Positions 490 through 6,106 of a DNA stretch of 64,000 bases are shown here, piece after piece. Source of the DNA: Thiogranum sp. (GTDB taxonomy: Bacteria; Pseudomonadota; Gammaproteobacteria; DSM-19610); contig JAGXGS010000021.1 in the NCBI GenBank assembly GCA_024636585.1, forward strand, positions 59,722 to 123,721. The letters are read 5' to 3'. The notes beneath the pieces were generated by a model. It was not told where the DNA came from. It searched no databases and saw nothing but the letters and a program-made list of their open reading frames with translations. Each line of letters starts with the position of its first letter. Position 1 is the first letter of the stretch. Made by a program: the position numbers and the translations under genes.

Positions 490-1692
490 TCAGAATTCCT
501 GCCAGTCGCCGCCCGCAGGCGCCGCCTTGTTTACCGCACGCGCCGCCGCGCCGCGACCTGCCGCCGAGCCACGCGCCTTCCCCGCAGCCGGCTCGCTCAC
601 TGCGGCGGTTGCGGAACCGGCGCCAAAGAATTGCATGACCTCCACCAGTTTCCGCCCCTGCTCCTCGGCGGAGCGCGAGGCGGCCGCCGCTTCTTCTACC
701 AGTGCCGCATTCTGCTGCGTCACCTCGTCCATCTGTGCGATTGCGCGATTGACCTGCTCGATGCCCGCCGACTGCTCCTGACTCGCCGCGGCGATCTCGG
801 CAACGACATCCGTCACTTTCTTCACGCTCGCGACAATCTCGGTCAGGGTCTTTCCCGACTCATCAACCAGCGACGATCCGGCGCGGACTTTATCCACCGA
901 ATCCCCGATCAGATCCTTGATTTCCTTTGCCGCACCCGAAGACCGCTGGGCCAGGTTGCGAACTTCGGCCGCCACCACCGCGAAGCCGCGTCCCTGTTCA
1001 CCGGCGCGCGCCGCTTCCACCGCGGCATTCAGTGCCAGCAGGTTGGTCTGGAAAGCAATCTCGTCAATGACACTGATGATGTCCGCGATCTTGCGGCTGG
1101 AGGCGTTGATTTGACCCATCGCCGACACCGCCATCGCGACCACCTGACCACCCTGTTCAGCCTGGCTGCGCGCGCCCAGTGCCAGTTCGTTGGCCTGACG
1201 CGCGTTGCCGGCGTTCTGTTGCACAGTCGAAGTCATCTGCTCCATCGACGAGGCGCTTTCCTCGAGCGCGGCCGCCTGTTCCTGGGTGCGCTGGCTGAGA
1301 TCATCGTTACCGGCAGCAATTTCACGTGCCGAGGTGTTGACCGAGTCGGACGCGCAGCGCACCTCGCCAACGATCTGCGAAAGCTTTTCGCCCATCCGGC
1401 GCAGCGCGTTGAGCAGTTCGCCCAGTTCGTCGTTCCGCTCTATGCGGATGCTGTGATCAAGTTCGCCGTTCGCGATACGGCCGGCAACACTCACTGCCTG
1501 CTGCAGGGGCTGCACAATGGCCTTCACCAGCAGCCATGCCATCCACAGTACGAAGCCGGCACCAAGAACGATCGACACAATCGCAGTGGTGCGCATGACT
1601 GCGTAGAGTTCCGTGGCCTTATGATATTCCTCGCCGGCGATCTCCATCTGCAGCTTCAGAAGACTTTGCGTAACCTCGCCCACCGGCTCGTA
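490..1692 (-). pseudogene. Methyl-accepting chemotaxis protein, 3' half (TM2-HAMP-signalling domain, C-terminal pentapeptide DWQEF), separated from its 5' half by the IS
   Basis: Contains [30 protein letters not shown]. Joins in frame to 5645-6106 when the IS and one TSD copy are removed (...[14 protein letters not shown]...). Confidence 0.93.
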
Positions 1693-1700
1693 TAATGTTT

Positions 1701-1722
1701 CGGAAGTATGTACTTAACGAAA
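1701..1722 (+). repeat. Terminal inverted repeat of the IS1595 element (left end in window)
   Basis: Exact reverse complement of 5623-5644; preceded by TSD 1693-1700. Confidence 0.96.
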
Positions 1723-1766
1723 CGTGCGTGGGTATTTGGGCTGTTCAGCCCGTTAATTAGCAACCA

Positions 1767-1937
1767 CTAATCCTTCGGCTTCTTCTCTTTATCAGGCTTC
1801 GGCCAGCCTTCAGTTGGGCGCTCTTTCTTCAGGGCATCGCCCACGGCGTCCTCCCAGTCCTTGTCTATTTTGACGCGGTCTGGCTTTGGGCCGGTCTTAC
1901 TCTTTCCGTCCTCAGTGCTGGCTTTCTTCACCATCAT
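1767..1937 (-). CDS. Small Lys/Pro-rich hypothetical protein (56 aa), IS passenger
   Basis: Own translation MMVKKASTEDGKSKTGPKPDRVKIDKDWEDAVGDALKKERPTEGWPKPDKEKKPKD. Start overlaps the 3' end of the 305-aa gene; below the ORF-track cutoff. Confidence 0.6.
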   Translation of the reverse strand: MMVKKASTEDGKSKTGPKPDRVKIDKDWEDAVGDALKKERPTEGWPKPDKEKKPKD

Positions 1938-2829
1938 CAACATCCGACAGAACCAGTTTTTGAGCTTCCAGGAGCCGGATAAGCTTGCCTATCTCTTTTG
2001 GCCCCATGTCCCCAGATACCAGCAGCCGGTAGCTAATATCGCGTGAGAGTGGGCCACGCAGCCACTCTCGCTCGCTATCCGAAGTAGCGACACCTGGTAT
2101 TGGAAGAGTTGGGGGATTGACTCGCGGTGGCTGGTTATCCGATTGTCCACCCTTGCCTTCAACAATTACTTCGCTCATTGGAATGCCCGTCTGACTTCCA
2201 TCAATGAATACCCATGTCTGGCCTTCGTGTTCCTCAACCGCTCGCACACGCTTAGGTTGTTCGAGTTGGAGTACACCGCCAGACTCCCATTGCACCAGAT
2301 CTCCGATCTCCGCATTGTTTTCACCTTCTGGGCCTTCGTCCTGCACGCTGGCTTTATCAGGATTTATATACGATAAGGCGTCTTTATATACCTTAATTAT
2401 ATCAGAAACAGCATTGGGATTATACTCGCGACTGACGAGATAGTGCCGTAAATTCTCACCCGAAGCTTTACCATCAGGGTATTCGGCCACCAGATCACGA
2501 ATGATCTTAGGGGTAGTCGCAGCAGCCTCTAGTAGCTTACTCCTCTCCGGTGAAATCTCTCGTTCATCTCGGACGATGGATAAGCCCGCCTCTGTTAGAT
2601 TTACCACGCGATCGTTGCCAACACCTTTATCATCTATTAAACCAAAGGCTTTCAGCGCAGCAATGCTCAATTTCCCACCGCTACTCTTCTCACTATAATC
2701 CCAGTGGCTCACAACAGCAGATACAGGTGCCGCGTGCTTCCCCTCTTTTTCATAGAGTTTTTTCGCCCGAGCCACGCATTCTGTGAGAGTCAAACCCGGG
2801 TACGAAGGACTACGATGCCGTTTTGCCAT
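1912..2829 (-). CDS. Hypothetical protein (305 aa), IS passenger; N-terminal winged-HTH-like region, possible regulator
   Basis: Long ORF with GGAGA RBS and a sigma70-like promoter (TTGATA 2893-2888, TAAAAT 2869-2864). The ...SIAALKAFGLID...VNLTEAG segment resembles a wHTH wing. Confidence 0.75.
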   Translation of the reverse strand: MAKRHRSPSYPGLTLTECVARAKKLYEKEGKHAAPVSAVVSHWDYSEKSSGGKLSIAALKAFGLIDDKGVGNDRVVNLTEAGLSIVRDEREISPERSKLLEAAATTPKIIRDLVAEYPDGKASGENLRHYLVSREYNPNAVSDIIKVYKDALSYINPDKASVQDEGPEGENNAEIGDLVQWESGGVLQLEQPKRVRAVEEHEGQTWVFIDGSQTGIPMSEVIVEGKGGQSDNQPPRVNPPTLPIPGVATSDSEREWLRGPLSRDISYRLLVSGDMGPKEIGKLIRLLEAQKLVLSDVDDGEESQH

Positions 2830-2863
2830 GACTTAATCTCCGCTTGAATTTCAAAGTCAGGCT

Positions 2864-2930
2864 ATTTTATCTCCATGTGAGGAGATATATCAACTGAATT
2901 GTTTGACATATATCTCCGATAAGGTACAAT
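2864..2930. promoter_or_regulatory. Divergent sigma70 promoters with palindromic operators
   Basis: Rightward TTGACA (2903-2908)-N16-TACAAT (2925-2930); leftward TTGATA-N18-TAAAAT. Palindromes TATCTCC-N6-GGAGATA (2868-2887) and GGAGATATAT...ATATATCTCC (2881-2917). Confidence 0.7.
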
Positions 2931-3085
2931 TCCCCGCAATGAGGGTGCGGACCAAAAAGGAGGAATTAACTAGATGAGAAGAGCGAGAGGCTGGTCTGGC
3001 AGCCATGACCAAGCACCAAGAAGCAGAGGAAAGCTTGCTGGCCCCTGCTGCTACCTGGCGACCCAGATGGAACGATTATCATCTT

Positions 3086-3186
3086 GCCGACGTGGCGAAA
3101 TTGGTATACGCGGTGGCTTTGGAAGCTACTGGACACTGATCCTTGGGAGAGGGGAGTCCATGCGGGTTCGAATCCTGTCGTCGGCA
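3086..3186 (+). tRNA. Atypical class II tRNA: tRNA-Leu-like body, anticodon TGG (Pro), 31-nt variable arm, no encoded CCA
   Basis: Acceptor GCCGACG/CGTCGGC + A73; D-arm GCG-AAATTGGTATA-CGC; anticodon arm GTGGC-TTTGGAA-GCTAC (TGG at 3120-3122); variable arm TGGAC...GTCCA (3130-3160); T-arm GCGGG-TTCGAAT-CCTGT. Confidence 0.85.
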
Positions 3187-3233
3187 TTTTCACAAAATGC
3201 TATAGCAGTATATATGCTGCGGGAGTAATTTCA

Positions 3234-3380
3234 ATGGCAAAGAACGAGAAAACCTCGAAAAGCGTTGCTTCAAAAGCGGCAAAAATCCTTCGTAATCCGA
3301 GTTCTACGAAGGCCCAGAAGAGCGTAGCCGCATCTGCGCTCACCCAGGCCCCGGATAAGGGAAAGAAGGGCAAGAAGTAG
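3234..3380 (+). CDS. Small basic hypothetical protein (48 aa), IS passenger
   Basis: GGGAG RBS at 3221-3225 then ATG 3234; MAKNEKTSKSVASKAAKILRNPSSTKAQKSVAASALTQAPDKGKKGKK (true start inside ORF-track 3084..3380). Confidence 0.7.
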   Translation: MAKNEKTSKSVASKAAKILRNPSSTKAQKSVAASALTQAPDKGKKGKK

Positions 3381-3384
3381 TTAG

Positions 3385-3660
3385 TTAGGCTGTTTCAGCG
3401 AGTGGCTGGCTTATGTCAGTCACTCGTTTTATTGAACAATTGGGTATTGTGATCGTCCCGGACGCCTGCATATCATCACTGTCGGTATCGGCCAGGTTCG
3501 GTGCCAGCACTTTTGCGTCATCGCTCTCAAAGACCAGAAACCCTACAGACAAACAATTGCATACCGTGGGCGCCTCGATTGCCCCAATAAACTGCCAAGC
3601 CGGAACAGGCTGGCGGCTGTCCAGCCATTCAATGACAACAAGACGCGGAGTTTCAGGCAC
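3385..3660 (-). CDS. Small beta-rich hypothetical protein (~91 aa), translationally coupled to the transposase
   Basis: GTG 3660 lies just upstream of the transposase stop (GTGCCTGA). The LVVIEWLDS...CLSVGFLV...ITIP pattern resembles small phage/MGE proteins. Confidence 0.65.
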   Translation of the reverse strand: MPETPRLVVIEWLDSRQPVPAWQFIGAIEAPTVCNCLSVGFLVFESDDAKVLAPNLADTDSDDMQASGTITIPNCSIKRVTDISQPLAETA

Positions 3661-4615
3661 TTTTAACTGGCTCCCTGTAAAGAAGCCGTTTGCCATCTGC
3701 ACCACGTATAGCCGCTACTGTGCGGTCGCCATCTTCTAGGTGACGGTAGTTATAACGAAACTCGTATTCTGAAAGATAGCGGTGTAAATGCTCTTTTGAT
3801 ACTGAATGATAGATGCCATTCAGACCGCGTTTAACGATTGAGAAGAAACCCTCAATCGTGTTGCTGTGCACATCACCGCGCACGTATTCTTTACGGGCAT
3901 GATGGACAGCCGCATGACCATTCTTGAACTCAGCCCCAATACCACGGTAGGCCTGGTTCTCATCTGTTAGCAGCCGTGAAGCCTCTGGATCAATATTCTT
4001 CCTGATTTCCTTGCTCAGAGTCTTTGCTGTGACGTTGGCAATGACCTTGGTACGGACACGGCCTTTGCGCTCAACCATAGCCATAACGGCCTGCTTATTC
4101 GTTCCGCGCCCCGGTTTGCTCTGACCCTTGTAACGGGGCTTACCGCCGACATAGGTCTCATCAACCTCCACGTCCCCGGATAGTGGGCCGGGCGCTGAAT
4201 CAGACATGGCGAACCGAATACGATGTAGCAGGAACAGAGCTGATTTGTACGAAATTCCGGTATGACGGTGAATCTCAAGCGCGCTGACGCCTTTTTTGCT
4301 GGTAGATGCACGCCAGAAGCCATAGCACCAGTGGCGCAGCGGAATGCGGCTATCCTCAAATACAGTGCCTTTTCGGACGGTGAACTGGCTCTTGCAGCCA
4401 TTGCAGCGCCAGCGGAAGTTAGCCTGGCGCTCTTCCGTCTTGGAGTCCTTCATCTGATAAACGCTGGTGTCGCCACAATGCGGGCAGGCTGGATGATCGC
4501 CCCAACGCTGCTTTTCTAGGAATTCGACAGCCGCCGCTTCATCAGCGCAGGCGAGTGGAAGTTCCTGAATCACGGGGTCGTTCTTGGTGGATCGATTCTG
4601 TACTTTCTTGCCCAT
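3653..4615 (-). CDS. IS1595-family (ISXO2-like) DDE transposase with N-terminal Zn ribbon
   Basis: CPHCG...WRCNGC Zn ribbon; VEVDETYVGGK, LLTDE, HSNTIEGFFS, YLSEYEFRYN motifs. Confidence 0.95.
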   Translation of the reverse strand: MGKKVQNRSTKNDPVIQELPLACADEAAAVEFLEKQRWGDHPACPHCGDTSVYQMKDSKTEERQANFRWRCNGCKSQFTVRKGTVFEDSRIPLRHWCYGFWRASTSKKGVSALEIHRHTGISYKSALFLLHRIRFAMSDSAPGPLSGDVEVDETYVGGKPRYKGQSKPGRGTNKQAVMAMVERKGRVRTKVIANVTAKTLSKEIRKNIDPEASRLLTDENQAYRGIGAEFKNGHAAVHHARKEYVRGDVHSNTIEGFFSIVKRGLNGIYHSVSKEHLHRYLSEYEFRYNYRHLEDGDRTVAAIRGADGKRLLYREPVKSA

Positions 4616-4622
4616 GGGTAAA

Positions 4623-4650
4623 ATTATACTTGAGTAAACTCTTTTGTCAA
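4623..4650 (-). promoter_or_regulatory. Consensus sigma70 promoter for the transposase, probably leaderless mRNA
   Basis: TTGACA (4650-4645)-N16-TATAAT (4628-4623), then only 7 nt to ATG 4615, with no SD. Confidence 0.75.
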
Positions 4651-4697
4651 GTAAAAAGTTAGTTCATTGGCATGCTGAGTCTGTGCTCAAGATATAC

Positions 4698-4731
4698 TTG
4701 ACATGGACGAAAAACTATAAGTACTATAGTT
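4698..4731 (+). promoter_or_regulatory. sigma70 promoter and operator palindrome of the TA-like operon
   Basis: TTGACA (4698-4703)-N18-TACTAT (4722-4727); inverted repeat AACTATA-N5-TATAGTT (4713-4731) overlapping the -10. Confidence 0.7.
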
Positions 4732-4735
4732 ATCT

Positions 4736-5107
4736 ATGGTCACAAACATAGTCGAAATATCTCGCATCATAAAGCCCCGGCGAGGCGAGGTGATAAACAA
4801 ATTGCGGGCACGCCGACTGGTTTGTGAGATATCAAACGTTACCAAAGATATTTGTTTTACAGACCGCGCTAATGAGGATATGGGCAAAAAGCGTGTTACT
4901 AATGCACAAATAGTAGCTGCATTGCGATCTGGAGAATTAGTAAACGACCCGGAGTGGAGCATTGCCAATAAGGCGTGGGAATGCGAGACAGCACATAGTT
5001 TAGTAGCTGGACAGGATATCAAAATTTTATTTGCTATATATATAAATGACGATAGCGACGGGGAGAGGTGCCAGATTATAGTTTATTCAATACATTCAAG
5101 GGCTTAG
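4736..5107 (+). CDS. DUF4258-like putative RNase toxin (type II TA-like)
   Basis: ICFTDRANEDMGKKRVTNAQIVAALRSGELVNDPE resembles the DUF4258 FTxHAxxxMxxRxIT..xLxxG pattern. Immediately upstream of an XRE-HTH gene. Confidence 0.6.
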   Translation: MVTNIVEISRIIKPRRGEVINKLRARRLVCEISNVTKDICFTDRANEDMGKKRVTNAQIVAALRSGELVNDPEWSIANKAWECETAHSLVAGQDIKILFAIYINDDSDGERCQIIVYSIHSRA

Positions 5108-5109
5108 AT

Positions 5110-5559
5110 ATGTATCATTACAAAACATGCGGATTGCCAGATATATGGTTATCCAATGGTTACCAAAAAATAGATACCCCATATGGCGTAGCAGAATCAA
5201 TTGACGATCTAGATGGATTGCATAAAACAATTGCATTAGATGTTATTGACTCGGCTGAATTACTTACTGCTGACGAGGTTCGTTTTTTACGCAAAGAACT
5301 TGGTATGACCCAGCGACGTTTAGGTAACATTGTAGGCTACTCTTCTCAGTCGGTAGCACTGTGGGAGAAAGGTAAATCAAAAATAAAACCATCGGCAGAC
5401 CGTATTATCAGGAAAGTATACTTAGAGTATGCTAACCAGAATGAAACAATTGTTAATCTGGTTGACCGCCTAAATAGCATAGATAAAGAAGACCATCGGC
5501 GTAGACGTACATATATTGAAGATTCAGAAAGGGGATGGAAGCCACAAGAAGCAGCGTAA
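5110..5559 (+). CDS. XRE-family HTH protein, putative antitoxin/regulator
   Basis: MYHYKTCGLPDIWLSNGY N-terminus plus HTH EVRFLRKELGMTQRRLGNIVGYSSQSVALWEKG. ATG is 2 nt after the upstream stop. Confidence 0.8.
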   Translation: MYHYKTCGLPDIWLSNGYQKIDTPYGVAESIDDLDGLHKTIALDVIDSAELLTADEVRFLRKELGMTQRRLGNIVGYSSQSVALWEKGKSKIKPSADRIIRKVYLEYANQNETIVNLVDRLNSIDKEDHRRRRTYIEDSERGWKPQEAA

Positions 5560-5582
5560 CCCACACACCCTTTATTCAGATT

Positions 5583-5611
5583 AAAGCCCTGGTTTATGCG
5601 GGGCTTTTTTT
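5583..5611 (+). terminator. Rho-independent terminator after the TA-like operon
   Basis: AAAGCCC...GGGCTTT stem followed by a T run, just inside the right IR. Confidence 0.7.
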
Positions 5612-5622
5612 ATTCTCGTCCC

Positions 5623-5644
5623 TTTCGTTAAGTACATACTTCCG
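5623..5644 (-). repeat. Terminal inverted repeat of the IS1595 element (right end in window)
   Basis: TTTCGTTAAGTACATACTTCCG followed by TSD TAATGTTT. Confidence 0.96.
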
Positions 5645-6106
5645 TAATGTTTCCATCCGGTTCAGCACATGACGGCGCGCCTCGGCGTGCTGTCCGTCGC
5701 GCAGCAGCGCAATGGCCGGCTGCAGGCCCTGTGTAACAAACAGCTTGCGCTGTGCTGCGAACTGATCCGCGAGCCGGCGTTCTTCGGTCGTCAACCAGGT
5801 GGACATGTAGGCGTCCCAGATGTCACTGATCGATGCGATATTGGCTTCCACCGCCTCGGCATTGGCGCGACTGACTTCGCGATTTTCGCTCAACACCGCT
5901 CGACTGATCAGCAGCCGGTTCAACAGGATCAGGCGATCGATGCCAGCGAGCTGGTCCAGCGGTATGGTGCGATCTTCGTAGACGGTGCGTAACTCTTCCT
6001 TGACCTTGCCCAGGCTGACGACGCCCATGACGCCGATCGCAACCAGCAGCAGGATTGCGACACCCAGAGTGATGACGAGGCGCGCCTTGATGGTCAGTGA
6101 CTTCAT
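5645..6106 (-). pseudogene. MCP 5' half (TM1 + four-helix-bundle Tar-like ligand-binding domain), interrupted by the IS
   Basis: MKSLTIKARLVITLGVAILLLVAIGVMG TM1, then YEDRTIPLDQL 4HB. The last 16 aa of the ORF-track protein are read-through into the IS end. Confidence 0.92.

Follow-up and report, generated by a model that had tools for sequence, protein, structure and literature searches.

A leucine-bodied tRNA with a proline anticodon in IS1595-family elements, and matching codons in the transposase: a candidate for self-directed recoding

The tRNA-Leu(UAA) encoded by bldA controls genes that contain TTA codons, and is cognate and chromosomal. Stop-recoded phages carry suppressor tRNAs for their own genes, and the codons used there are stop codons. 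In both cases one tRNA gates selected genes through a chosen codon, which is the likeness to the tRNA described here. A natural bacterial mismatch between tRNA body and anticodon is described in tRNA-ProX (tRNA-ProA, tRNA-ProN and tRNA-ProT) of Streptomyces and Kitasatospora, which is also missed by routine annotation; in the available part of that work, tRNA-ProX is shown to mistranslate and to be variably toxic (PMC10404621). The allo-tRNAs of Mukai et al. have in common with the present tRNA a long variable arm and an anticodon to which the synthetase is blind (PMC5389517; review PMC7609411, both available in part). They have missense activity and are located near toxin-antitoxin and transposon genes (PMC5389517). 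The carrier element, for its part, resembles the tIS of the IS1595 family, for which the accessible text describes a Zn-ribbon and DDE transposase, terminal inverted repeats (TIRs), an 8-bp duplication, and regulators among the passengers (PMC11891212, PMC8101967). A search of the accessible full-text literature found no description of tRNAs in IS1595 elements or of bacterial leucine-bodied UGG tRNAs; the supplements on allo-tRNAs may list such tRNAs.

The tRNA gene lies at 3086–3186 (+) of the window, by which we mean the whole stretch of 64,000 nucleotides of Thiogranum sp. DNA that was analysed. It combines a leucine-type class II body with a UGG anticodon, as judged by the Rfam tRNA model RF00005 (50.5 bits, E 1.2e-8, full length), by its sequence, and by a family of at least 83 members. 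The first-pass annotation had proposed ARAGORN for isotype scoring, but ARAGORN made no call at 3086–3186 at default settings and at a low threshold gave only a false internal fold; it is the Rfam model that detects a tRNA with UGG. The complete 7/5 cloverleaf with intact stems, a UGG loop and no encoded CCA, described in that annotation, is all there. The acceptor stem has 7/7 pairs, including G1:C72, C2:G71 and C3:G70. The D arm (3095–3111) carries A15, G18G19, U20 and A20a. The anticodon stem is paired 5/5 and the loop is UU-UGG-AA, with the anticodon at 3120–3122 and A37 at 3123. Then come a variable region of 31 nt (3130–3160), with U48, and a T stem paired 5/5, including two G-U pairs; the discriminator is A73, at 3186. 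Folding of the whole RNA gives a z of -1.6, a value that says little either way. In two runs with matching contigs a single letter is found throughout the gene, at a depth of 28–31, and the partial homologs from two other studies, one in each, differ elsewhere and leave the anticodon unchanged.

All of the tRNA-Leu identity elements of E. coli considered here (A73, A15:U48, G18G19, A20a, G18:U55, G19:C56 and U54:A58) are present in the window tRNA, whereas the leucine anticodon base A35 is absent, the anticodon being UGG. The tRNA-Pro set includes G72 and G37, and the ProRS determinants are anticodon bases G35 and G36 together with A73 (PMC9976931, in the part available for both sets). G35, G36 and A73 are found in the window tRNA; C1:G72, G15:C48, G37 and a short variable loop are absent, their places being taken by G1:C72, A15:U48, A37 and the 31-nt arm. 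The leucine-type body and the missing G72 and G37 of the proline set, both claimed earlier, are thus confirmed. The extended variable arm claimed with them is indeed 31 nt long, with a basal stem of 5 bp that is predicted to form, but the apical part folds only weakly and differently from the proposed hairpin. The arm (3130–3160) also resembles a kink-turn, with a 3-nt bulge followed by tandem G-A pairs. A kink-turn was considered as a feature of the whole family and rejected: the window arm fits and a copy in genome G196 comes close, but in most of the other long arms the bulge is on the 3' side.

The gene sits in an IS1595-family element of 3,944 bp (1701–5644). Repeat comparison identifies a left TIR of 22 bp (1701–1722, +) and a right TIR (5623–5644, -), both flanked by an 8-bp target duplication, TAATGTTT, at 1693–1700 and 5645–5652, which bears out the earlier statement that the tRNA is transposon-borne. 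The transposase (3653–4615, -; 320 aa) matches PF12762 (E 1e-40) and PF12760 (E 1e-12), and a fold search returned only distant DDE integrases and transposases. With a Zn-ribbon and DDE_Tnp_IS1595 transposase, TIRs, the 8-bp duplication and passenger genes, the carrier has the features of an IS1595-family tIS. The passengers include a basic protein of 58 aa (1767–1943, -), which is conserved in tRNA-bearing elements (16/61 loci), a basic protein of 48 aa (3234–3380, +; phrog_5079, E 6e-13) and a protein of 106 aa (3385–3705, -; phrog_25889, E 3e-4). A pair of genes at 4736–5559 (+), one DUF4258-like (a weak match, E 0.07) and one encoding an HTH/MqsA-like protein, is likely to be toxin-antitoxin cargo and is absent from most relatives. 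The gene divergent from the tRNA (1912–2829, -) encodes a candidate repressor of 305 aa with a possible N-terminal winged helix and a weak profile match to Csa3 (E 0.04). This protein falls in no Pfam or PHROG family, its structure predicted without an alignment has a pLDDT of 41, too low to be of use, and profile comparison with the upstream proteins of other loci gives a weak match (probability 23%); its homologs at two other loci are likewise divergent from the tRNA.

The element interrupts a methyl-accepting chemotaxis gene (490–1683 and 5594–6106, -) within a chemotaxis cluster, separating the sensor part from the HAMP-signalling part. The element is present as one copy in a genome that is 83% complete, and an empty-site joint (1692–5645) occurs in run X2 at a depth of 9.3, about a quarter of the depth, so that the insertion is probably recent. 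The host encodes a bacterial-type ProRS and three ordinary tRNA-Pro genes, all with C1:G72 and G37. One of them has the anticodon UGG, which disposes of a missing host tRNA-Pro(UGG) as an explanation. CCA accounts for 5.6 per 1000 codons in the host and 12% of its proline codons.

Relatives of the tRNA were sought with a pattern consisting of a leucine-type D arm (A15, GG and A20a included) followed by a UGG loop, which matched 17 viral stretches and at least 127 genome stretches. Parsing left 93 rows with a T arm and acceptor stem, 86 of them intact and 83 distinct; the rows dropped resembled, by eye, intron-split tRNA-Leu genes or half-gene repeats, and one locus (L444, genome G039) was excluded from every analysis. 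There are therefore at least 83 distinct intact relatives, and by their record titles they include proteobacteria, acidobacteria, planctomycetes, verrucomicrobia and gemmatimonadetes. Such tRNAs are rare per genome. A DNA search of 400 genomes of the class found one full-length homolog, 400 genomes of the phylum gave one match besides that of the window, with a string resembling the intron-type false positives, and blastn against plasmids gave no match. A control scan with other anticodons on the same D arm in viral contigs matched at least 122 stretches, with UGG in 3 of the sample; many of these are normal phage tRNAs that have identity elements of their own, genes split by introns, or sequences whose stems are broken, and the D arm alone is therefore no proof of leucine identity.

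The 83 listed relatives have a median core identity of 68%. Each stem pair is formed in 80–83 of them, and this pairing exceeds that of all 500 shuffles at each of 17 variable pairs, both figures coming from rows pre-filtered for pairing. A73 (80/83) and U48 (82/83), neither of which was in the search pattern, are almost always retained. G1:C72 occurs in 72/83 listed relatives, C1:G72 in 4/83, G3:U70 in none (0/83) and A37 in 62/83. Judged by these bases, the relatives match the E. coli leucine identity set, without the G72 and G37 of the proline set. The CCA end is unencoded in 54/83. The relatives keep UGG and their stems covary, the two points on which the first-pass annotation had proposed to judge its reading; its view that the gene is not decaying holds, and the family together with the matching contigs of two runs excludes a sequencing error or one-off mutation. 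The oversized variable arm, on the other hand, finds no support as an essential feature. The arms are bimodal in length, with 13–19 nt in 52/83 listed relatives and 23–51 nt in 31/83, the long ones having in common a base of 5–6 bp and an asymmetric loop. In engineered allo-tRNAs a bulge in the V-stem blocked SerRS (PMC7590224, in the part available), and by analogy the asymmetric loop may have the same role here.

A number of variants were seen. The four relatives with C1:G72 may have gained proline identity, and the transposase of one of them (L176) has no CCA site. Four loci have a second tRNA-like sequence in tandem before the UGG tRNA, two others (L283 and L285) have two odd tRNAs each, and three have an anticodon loop with C33 in place of U33. 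Four loci on Ruminococcaceae/Lachnospiraceae contigs have repeats of the 5' half of a tRNA-Leu followed by a short conserved motif, with as many as five such halves within 2.1 kb. At five phage loci, tRNA-Gln and tRNA-Asn genes combine a leucine-like D arm and a long variable arm with U1:A72 and G73.

Homologs in other IS1595 elements, which it had been proposed to look for, were found: an IS1595 transposase is present in 41/58 long loci of the tRNA family, while the other 17/58 have no transposase within about 3–4 kb. In 12/35 loci, TIRs with an exact 8-bp duplication enclose tRNA and transposase together. Conversely, among 187 loci picked by transposase alone, UGG is the dominant odd anticodon, occurring in nine leucine-bodied tRNAs, one serine-bodied, one short-armed and one ordinary phage tRNA-Pro; a profile search added three leucine-bodied UGG tRNAs, three with AGG and a few single others. 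Leucine-type bodies linked to IS1595 also occur with the anticodons UGU, UCU, GGA, GUC (L283) and UGC, at one locus each, and L283 has altered D- and T-loop bases in common with L301. Across 61 loci the recurrent neighbours are the transposase, two very small basic proteins and upstream proteins of various kinds; no recurring toxin, nuclease, synthetase or modifying enzyme was found beside the tRNA. Helix-turn-helix matches, mostly weak, were obtained for about a dozen of 44 hand-picked upstream proteins, and the upstream regulators, although frequent, come from several families.

Upstream of the window tRNA there is a predicted sigma70-type promoter, TTGACA-16-TACAAT (2903–2930, +; 11/12 match), 155 nt before the gene. 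Three of the window's eight GGAGATA boxes (2868–2874 reverse, 2881–2887 forward and 2911–2917 reverse) overlap it and a divergent promoter match at 2893–2864, and are likely to form an operator. The near-consensus promoter claimed earlier is thus present in the window as a predicted one, with a likely operator over it, but it is untypical: only 3/82 relatives have such a promoter within 250 nt upstream, and an alignment of the promoters of three loci showed nothing conserved. A stable hairpin is found just upstream of the tRNA in 49/80 relatives, compared with 7/80 control windows. The scarcity of promoters and the frequency of the hairpin suggest that the tRNAs of the relatives are expressed at a low level by read-through. 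It is worth adding that a strong Shine-Dalgarno sequence (within 2960–3228, +) and an ATG at 2974 open a frame of 84 codons that extends across the tRNA, begins with three AGA codons, contains one CCA and has no PHROG match; it may link translation to the processing of the tRNA, or have arisen by chance.

The codons of the transposase match the anticodon of the tRNA. In 36 tRNA-linked transposases CCA clusters at the positions that correspond to residues 20, about 144 and 316 of the window protein; at structural prolines it is rare. In a structural model, residue 20 is part of a helix, 144 falls in the linker that precedes the catalytic domain, and 316 belongs to the tail. The window transposase has CCA at 5/11 prolines, including all three conserved sites (residue 20, 4556–4558; 144, 4184–4186; 316, 3668–3670; all -). 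At the three sites CCA makes up 92/124 of the proline codons in 47 tRNA-bearing elements, against 12/80 in 49 tRNA-less ones, and at least one CCA site is present in 41/47 against 9/49, this comparison omitting 103 transposases with short flanks. Elsewhere in the same transposase genes the share of CCA is 74/420 and 52/419, respectively. As the pattern-selected set had served to define the three sites in the first place, a fair test has to come from 11 held-out elements picked by transposase only, and here a CCA site is found in 11/11, with CCA at 24/32 codons. Corrected for the tree, the association is no more than suggestive: over 12 independent pairs, 5.8 agree with it in direction, 0.2 run against it and 6.0 show no difference (median p 0.06). 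Exceptions occur in both directions, since 6/47 tRNA-linked transposases have no CCA site, and three elements have two or three CCA sites with no UGG tRNA detected nearby.

Other proteins and other anticodons can be compared in the same way. In the small basic protein (window 1767–1943) the first proline of a GP motif is encoded by CCA (1887–1889), and by eye this holds for 13/20 UGG elements and 0/3 tRNA-less ones. In two sister elements whose tRNA has the anticodon AGG, both the linker site and the C-terminal site are CCT; a third AGG element, with C33, has no CCT at the sites, and the switch from UGG/CCA to AGG/CCT is a single lineage. The serine-bodied UGG tRNA (G73) of L285 is accompanied by CCA at all three sites, from which it seems that a charge other than proline is the point common to these tRNAs. 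No base is conserved before or after the CCA sites. Conservation of the codon and not of its flanks fits in-frame decoding and gives no sign of a frameshift context at the sites, leaving the earlier suggestion of a frameshift-prone tRNA unsupported at its target codons. An IS1595 clade, mostly with no tRNA detected (five loci and their relatives), has the T-ending codons ACT, CCT, GCT and TCT at the C-terminal site.

On the basis of these observations we propose, with a probability of about 0.6, that the element recodes its own proteins by means of a leucine-charged tRNA of low abundance. Charging by the host LeuRS is likely, as is decoding of proline codons as leucine by the window tRNA, which is the best reading of its sequence; its expression, 3' maturation, leucylation and decoding are all inferred. 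A UGG tRNA would compete best at CCA, a codon read by one host isoacceptor, and we infer that CCA is the chosen codon because only this one competitor is met there. Leucine would then be inserted at the CCA proline codons of three fixed transposase sites, and transposition would thereby probably be tuned. Pro-to-Leu errors across the host would then come as a side cost, kept small by repression or by dependence on read-through of the hairpin.

What leucine would do at these sites can be considered from the homologs. Among 120 close homologs (70–94% identity), residue 20 is proline in 118 and never leucine, which gives no support to a need for leucine; residue 144 is proline in 93, methionine in 18 and leucine in 2, and residue 316 is proline in 87, serine in 16 and leucine in 2. 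Proline at 144 occurs in 49/92 relatives with no detected UGG tRNA, mostly with other codons. Since tRNA-less relatives retain proline, with other codons, at two of the three sites, a strict need for leucine seems to us slightly less likely than a minority form, substituted with leucine, that alters activity or the behaviour of multimers. Leucine at 316 is found in 33/152 transposases with no detected tRNA and in 0/47 with one, which may point to activation, the alternative being that leucine damps the element.

The first-pass annotation had offered a Pro-to-Leu mistranslator or a conditionally toxic RNA. The first half of this is retained, since Leu-for-Pro decoding is likely, but the maintenance of CCA at three transposase sites points to the element itself as the target, and away from general mistranslation or toxicity. 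A repressed toxic RNA, causing host-wide mistranslation on loss of the neighbouring HTH protein or on phage infection, and so acting in addiction or abortive infection, would explain the small gene, often with an HTH match, just upstream in many relatives, and would suit the common toxin-antitoxin cargo and the toxicity of natural mistranslating tRNAs in E. coli (PMC5389517 and PMC10404621, in the parts available). Such an RNA should nevertheless lead to avoidance of CCA, which is instead enriched at fixed sites of the transposase and small protein, and the upstream protein is not of one family; we regard this explanation as unlikely. A tRNA that delivers no amino acid, serving as a decoy that diverts a tRNA nuclease or modifying toxin, or pausing ribosomes at CCA in its uncharged form, is rather improbable. 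Some allo-tRNAs near toxin-antitoxin loci are inactive in translation, according to the accessible text (PMC5389517), variants with C33 and altered D and T loops do occur, and the CCA end is mostly unencoded. All synthetase and tertiary determinants are retained, however, the 61 loci show no recurring nuclease or toxin partner, which also speaks against the decoy or antitoxin suggested earlier, and a pure decoy would leave the in-frame CCA codons at fixed protein sites without explanation.

It is equally improbable that the tRNA is charged with proline and supplies CCA decoding, in which case the transposase would keep its sequence and its CCA sites would serve as a translational switch of the bldA kind. 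G35, G36 and A73 are ProRS determinants (PMC9976931, available in part), proline 20 is nearly invariant in close homologs, and a few listed relatives have C1:G72. Yet G72 is absent from 79/83 listed relatives and G37 from 62/83, though other stem pairs vary freely; the host already has a tRNA-Pro(UGG) and uses CCA at 5.6 per 1000 codons; and a serine-bodied version exists. Finally, the ARAGORN result and the single genome copy might suggest an assembly error, or a captured tRNA-Leu that is in decay and has changed its anticodon by chance, but this reading is refuted by the intact UGG relatives across phyla, their covarying stems and the matching contigs, and its probability is close to zero. 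Self-directed recoding is what we prefer to all of these. Its extension to the family is put forward tentatively, and we consider it somewhat doubtful: a widespread group of IS1595 elements would use a private genetic code, in which a synthetase-blind tRNA (leucine or serine body; UGG, sometimes AGG) has its proline codon placed at fixed positions in the transposase and small protein, and activity is switched by the regulated missense tRNA, for example in a burst on entering a host that lacks the repressor.

Natural mistranslating tRNAs are known, but not the purpose they serve in their hosts. In the present case the DNA itself shows the likely target, three codons of the neighbouring transposase whose presence varies together with that of the tRNA, and what deliberate mistranslation is for thus becomes directly testable. 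If the proposal is true, it adds a mode of transposon control beside frameshifting and antisense RNA. Annotation labels these genes tRNA-Pro or misses them, so that carriers would have unnoticed Pro-to-Leu errors. The natural variable arms of 23–51 nt probably reflect a tolerance of leucine tRNA for inserts, and would be of use in tRNA engineering.

Compared with the described systems, the tRNA is the opposite of tRNA-ProX, which has a proline body and a non-proline anticodon. As far as the available text of PMC10404621 goes, tRNA-ProX lies beside a dedicated ProRS (ProRSx) and has a narrow host range, whereas the present family has no synthetase among its recurring neighbours, is borne by IS1595 elements in many phyla, and has matching codons in the genes of the element. 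The allo-tRNAs have an 8/4 or 9/3 branch, a D arm like that of tRNA-Sec, serine or alanine identity and G73 or U73 (PMC5389517, in the part available); the window tRNA has a canonical 7/5 branch, a leucine-type D arm and A73, and one anticodon dominates its family. The passengers of tIS described in the accessible parts of PMC11891212 and PMC8101967 are regulators, methyltransferases and resistance genes, with no tRNAs and no codon link to the transposase. In contrast to bldA and the phage suppressors, the codon is a sense codon, a host tRNA competes for it, and the wrong amino acid would be inserted. The family is real and apparently undescribed, and its members are probably natural mistranslating tRNAs with a putative self-directed function.
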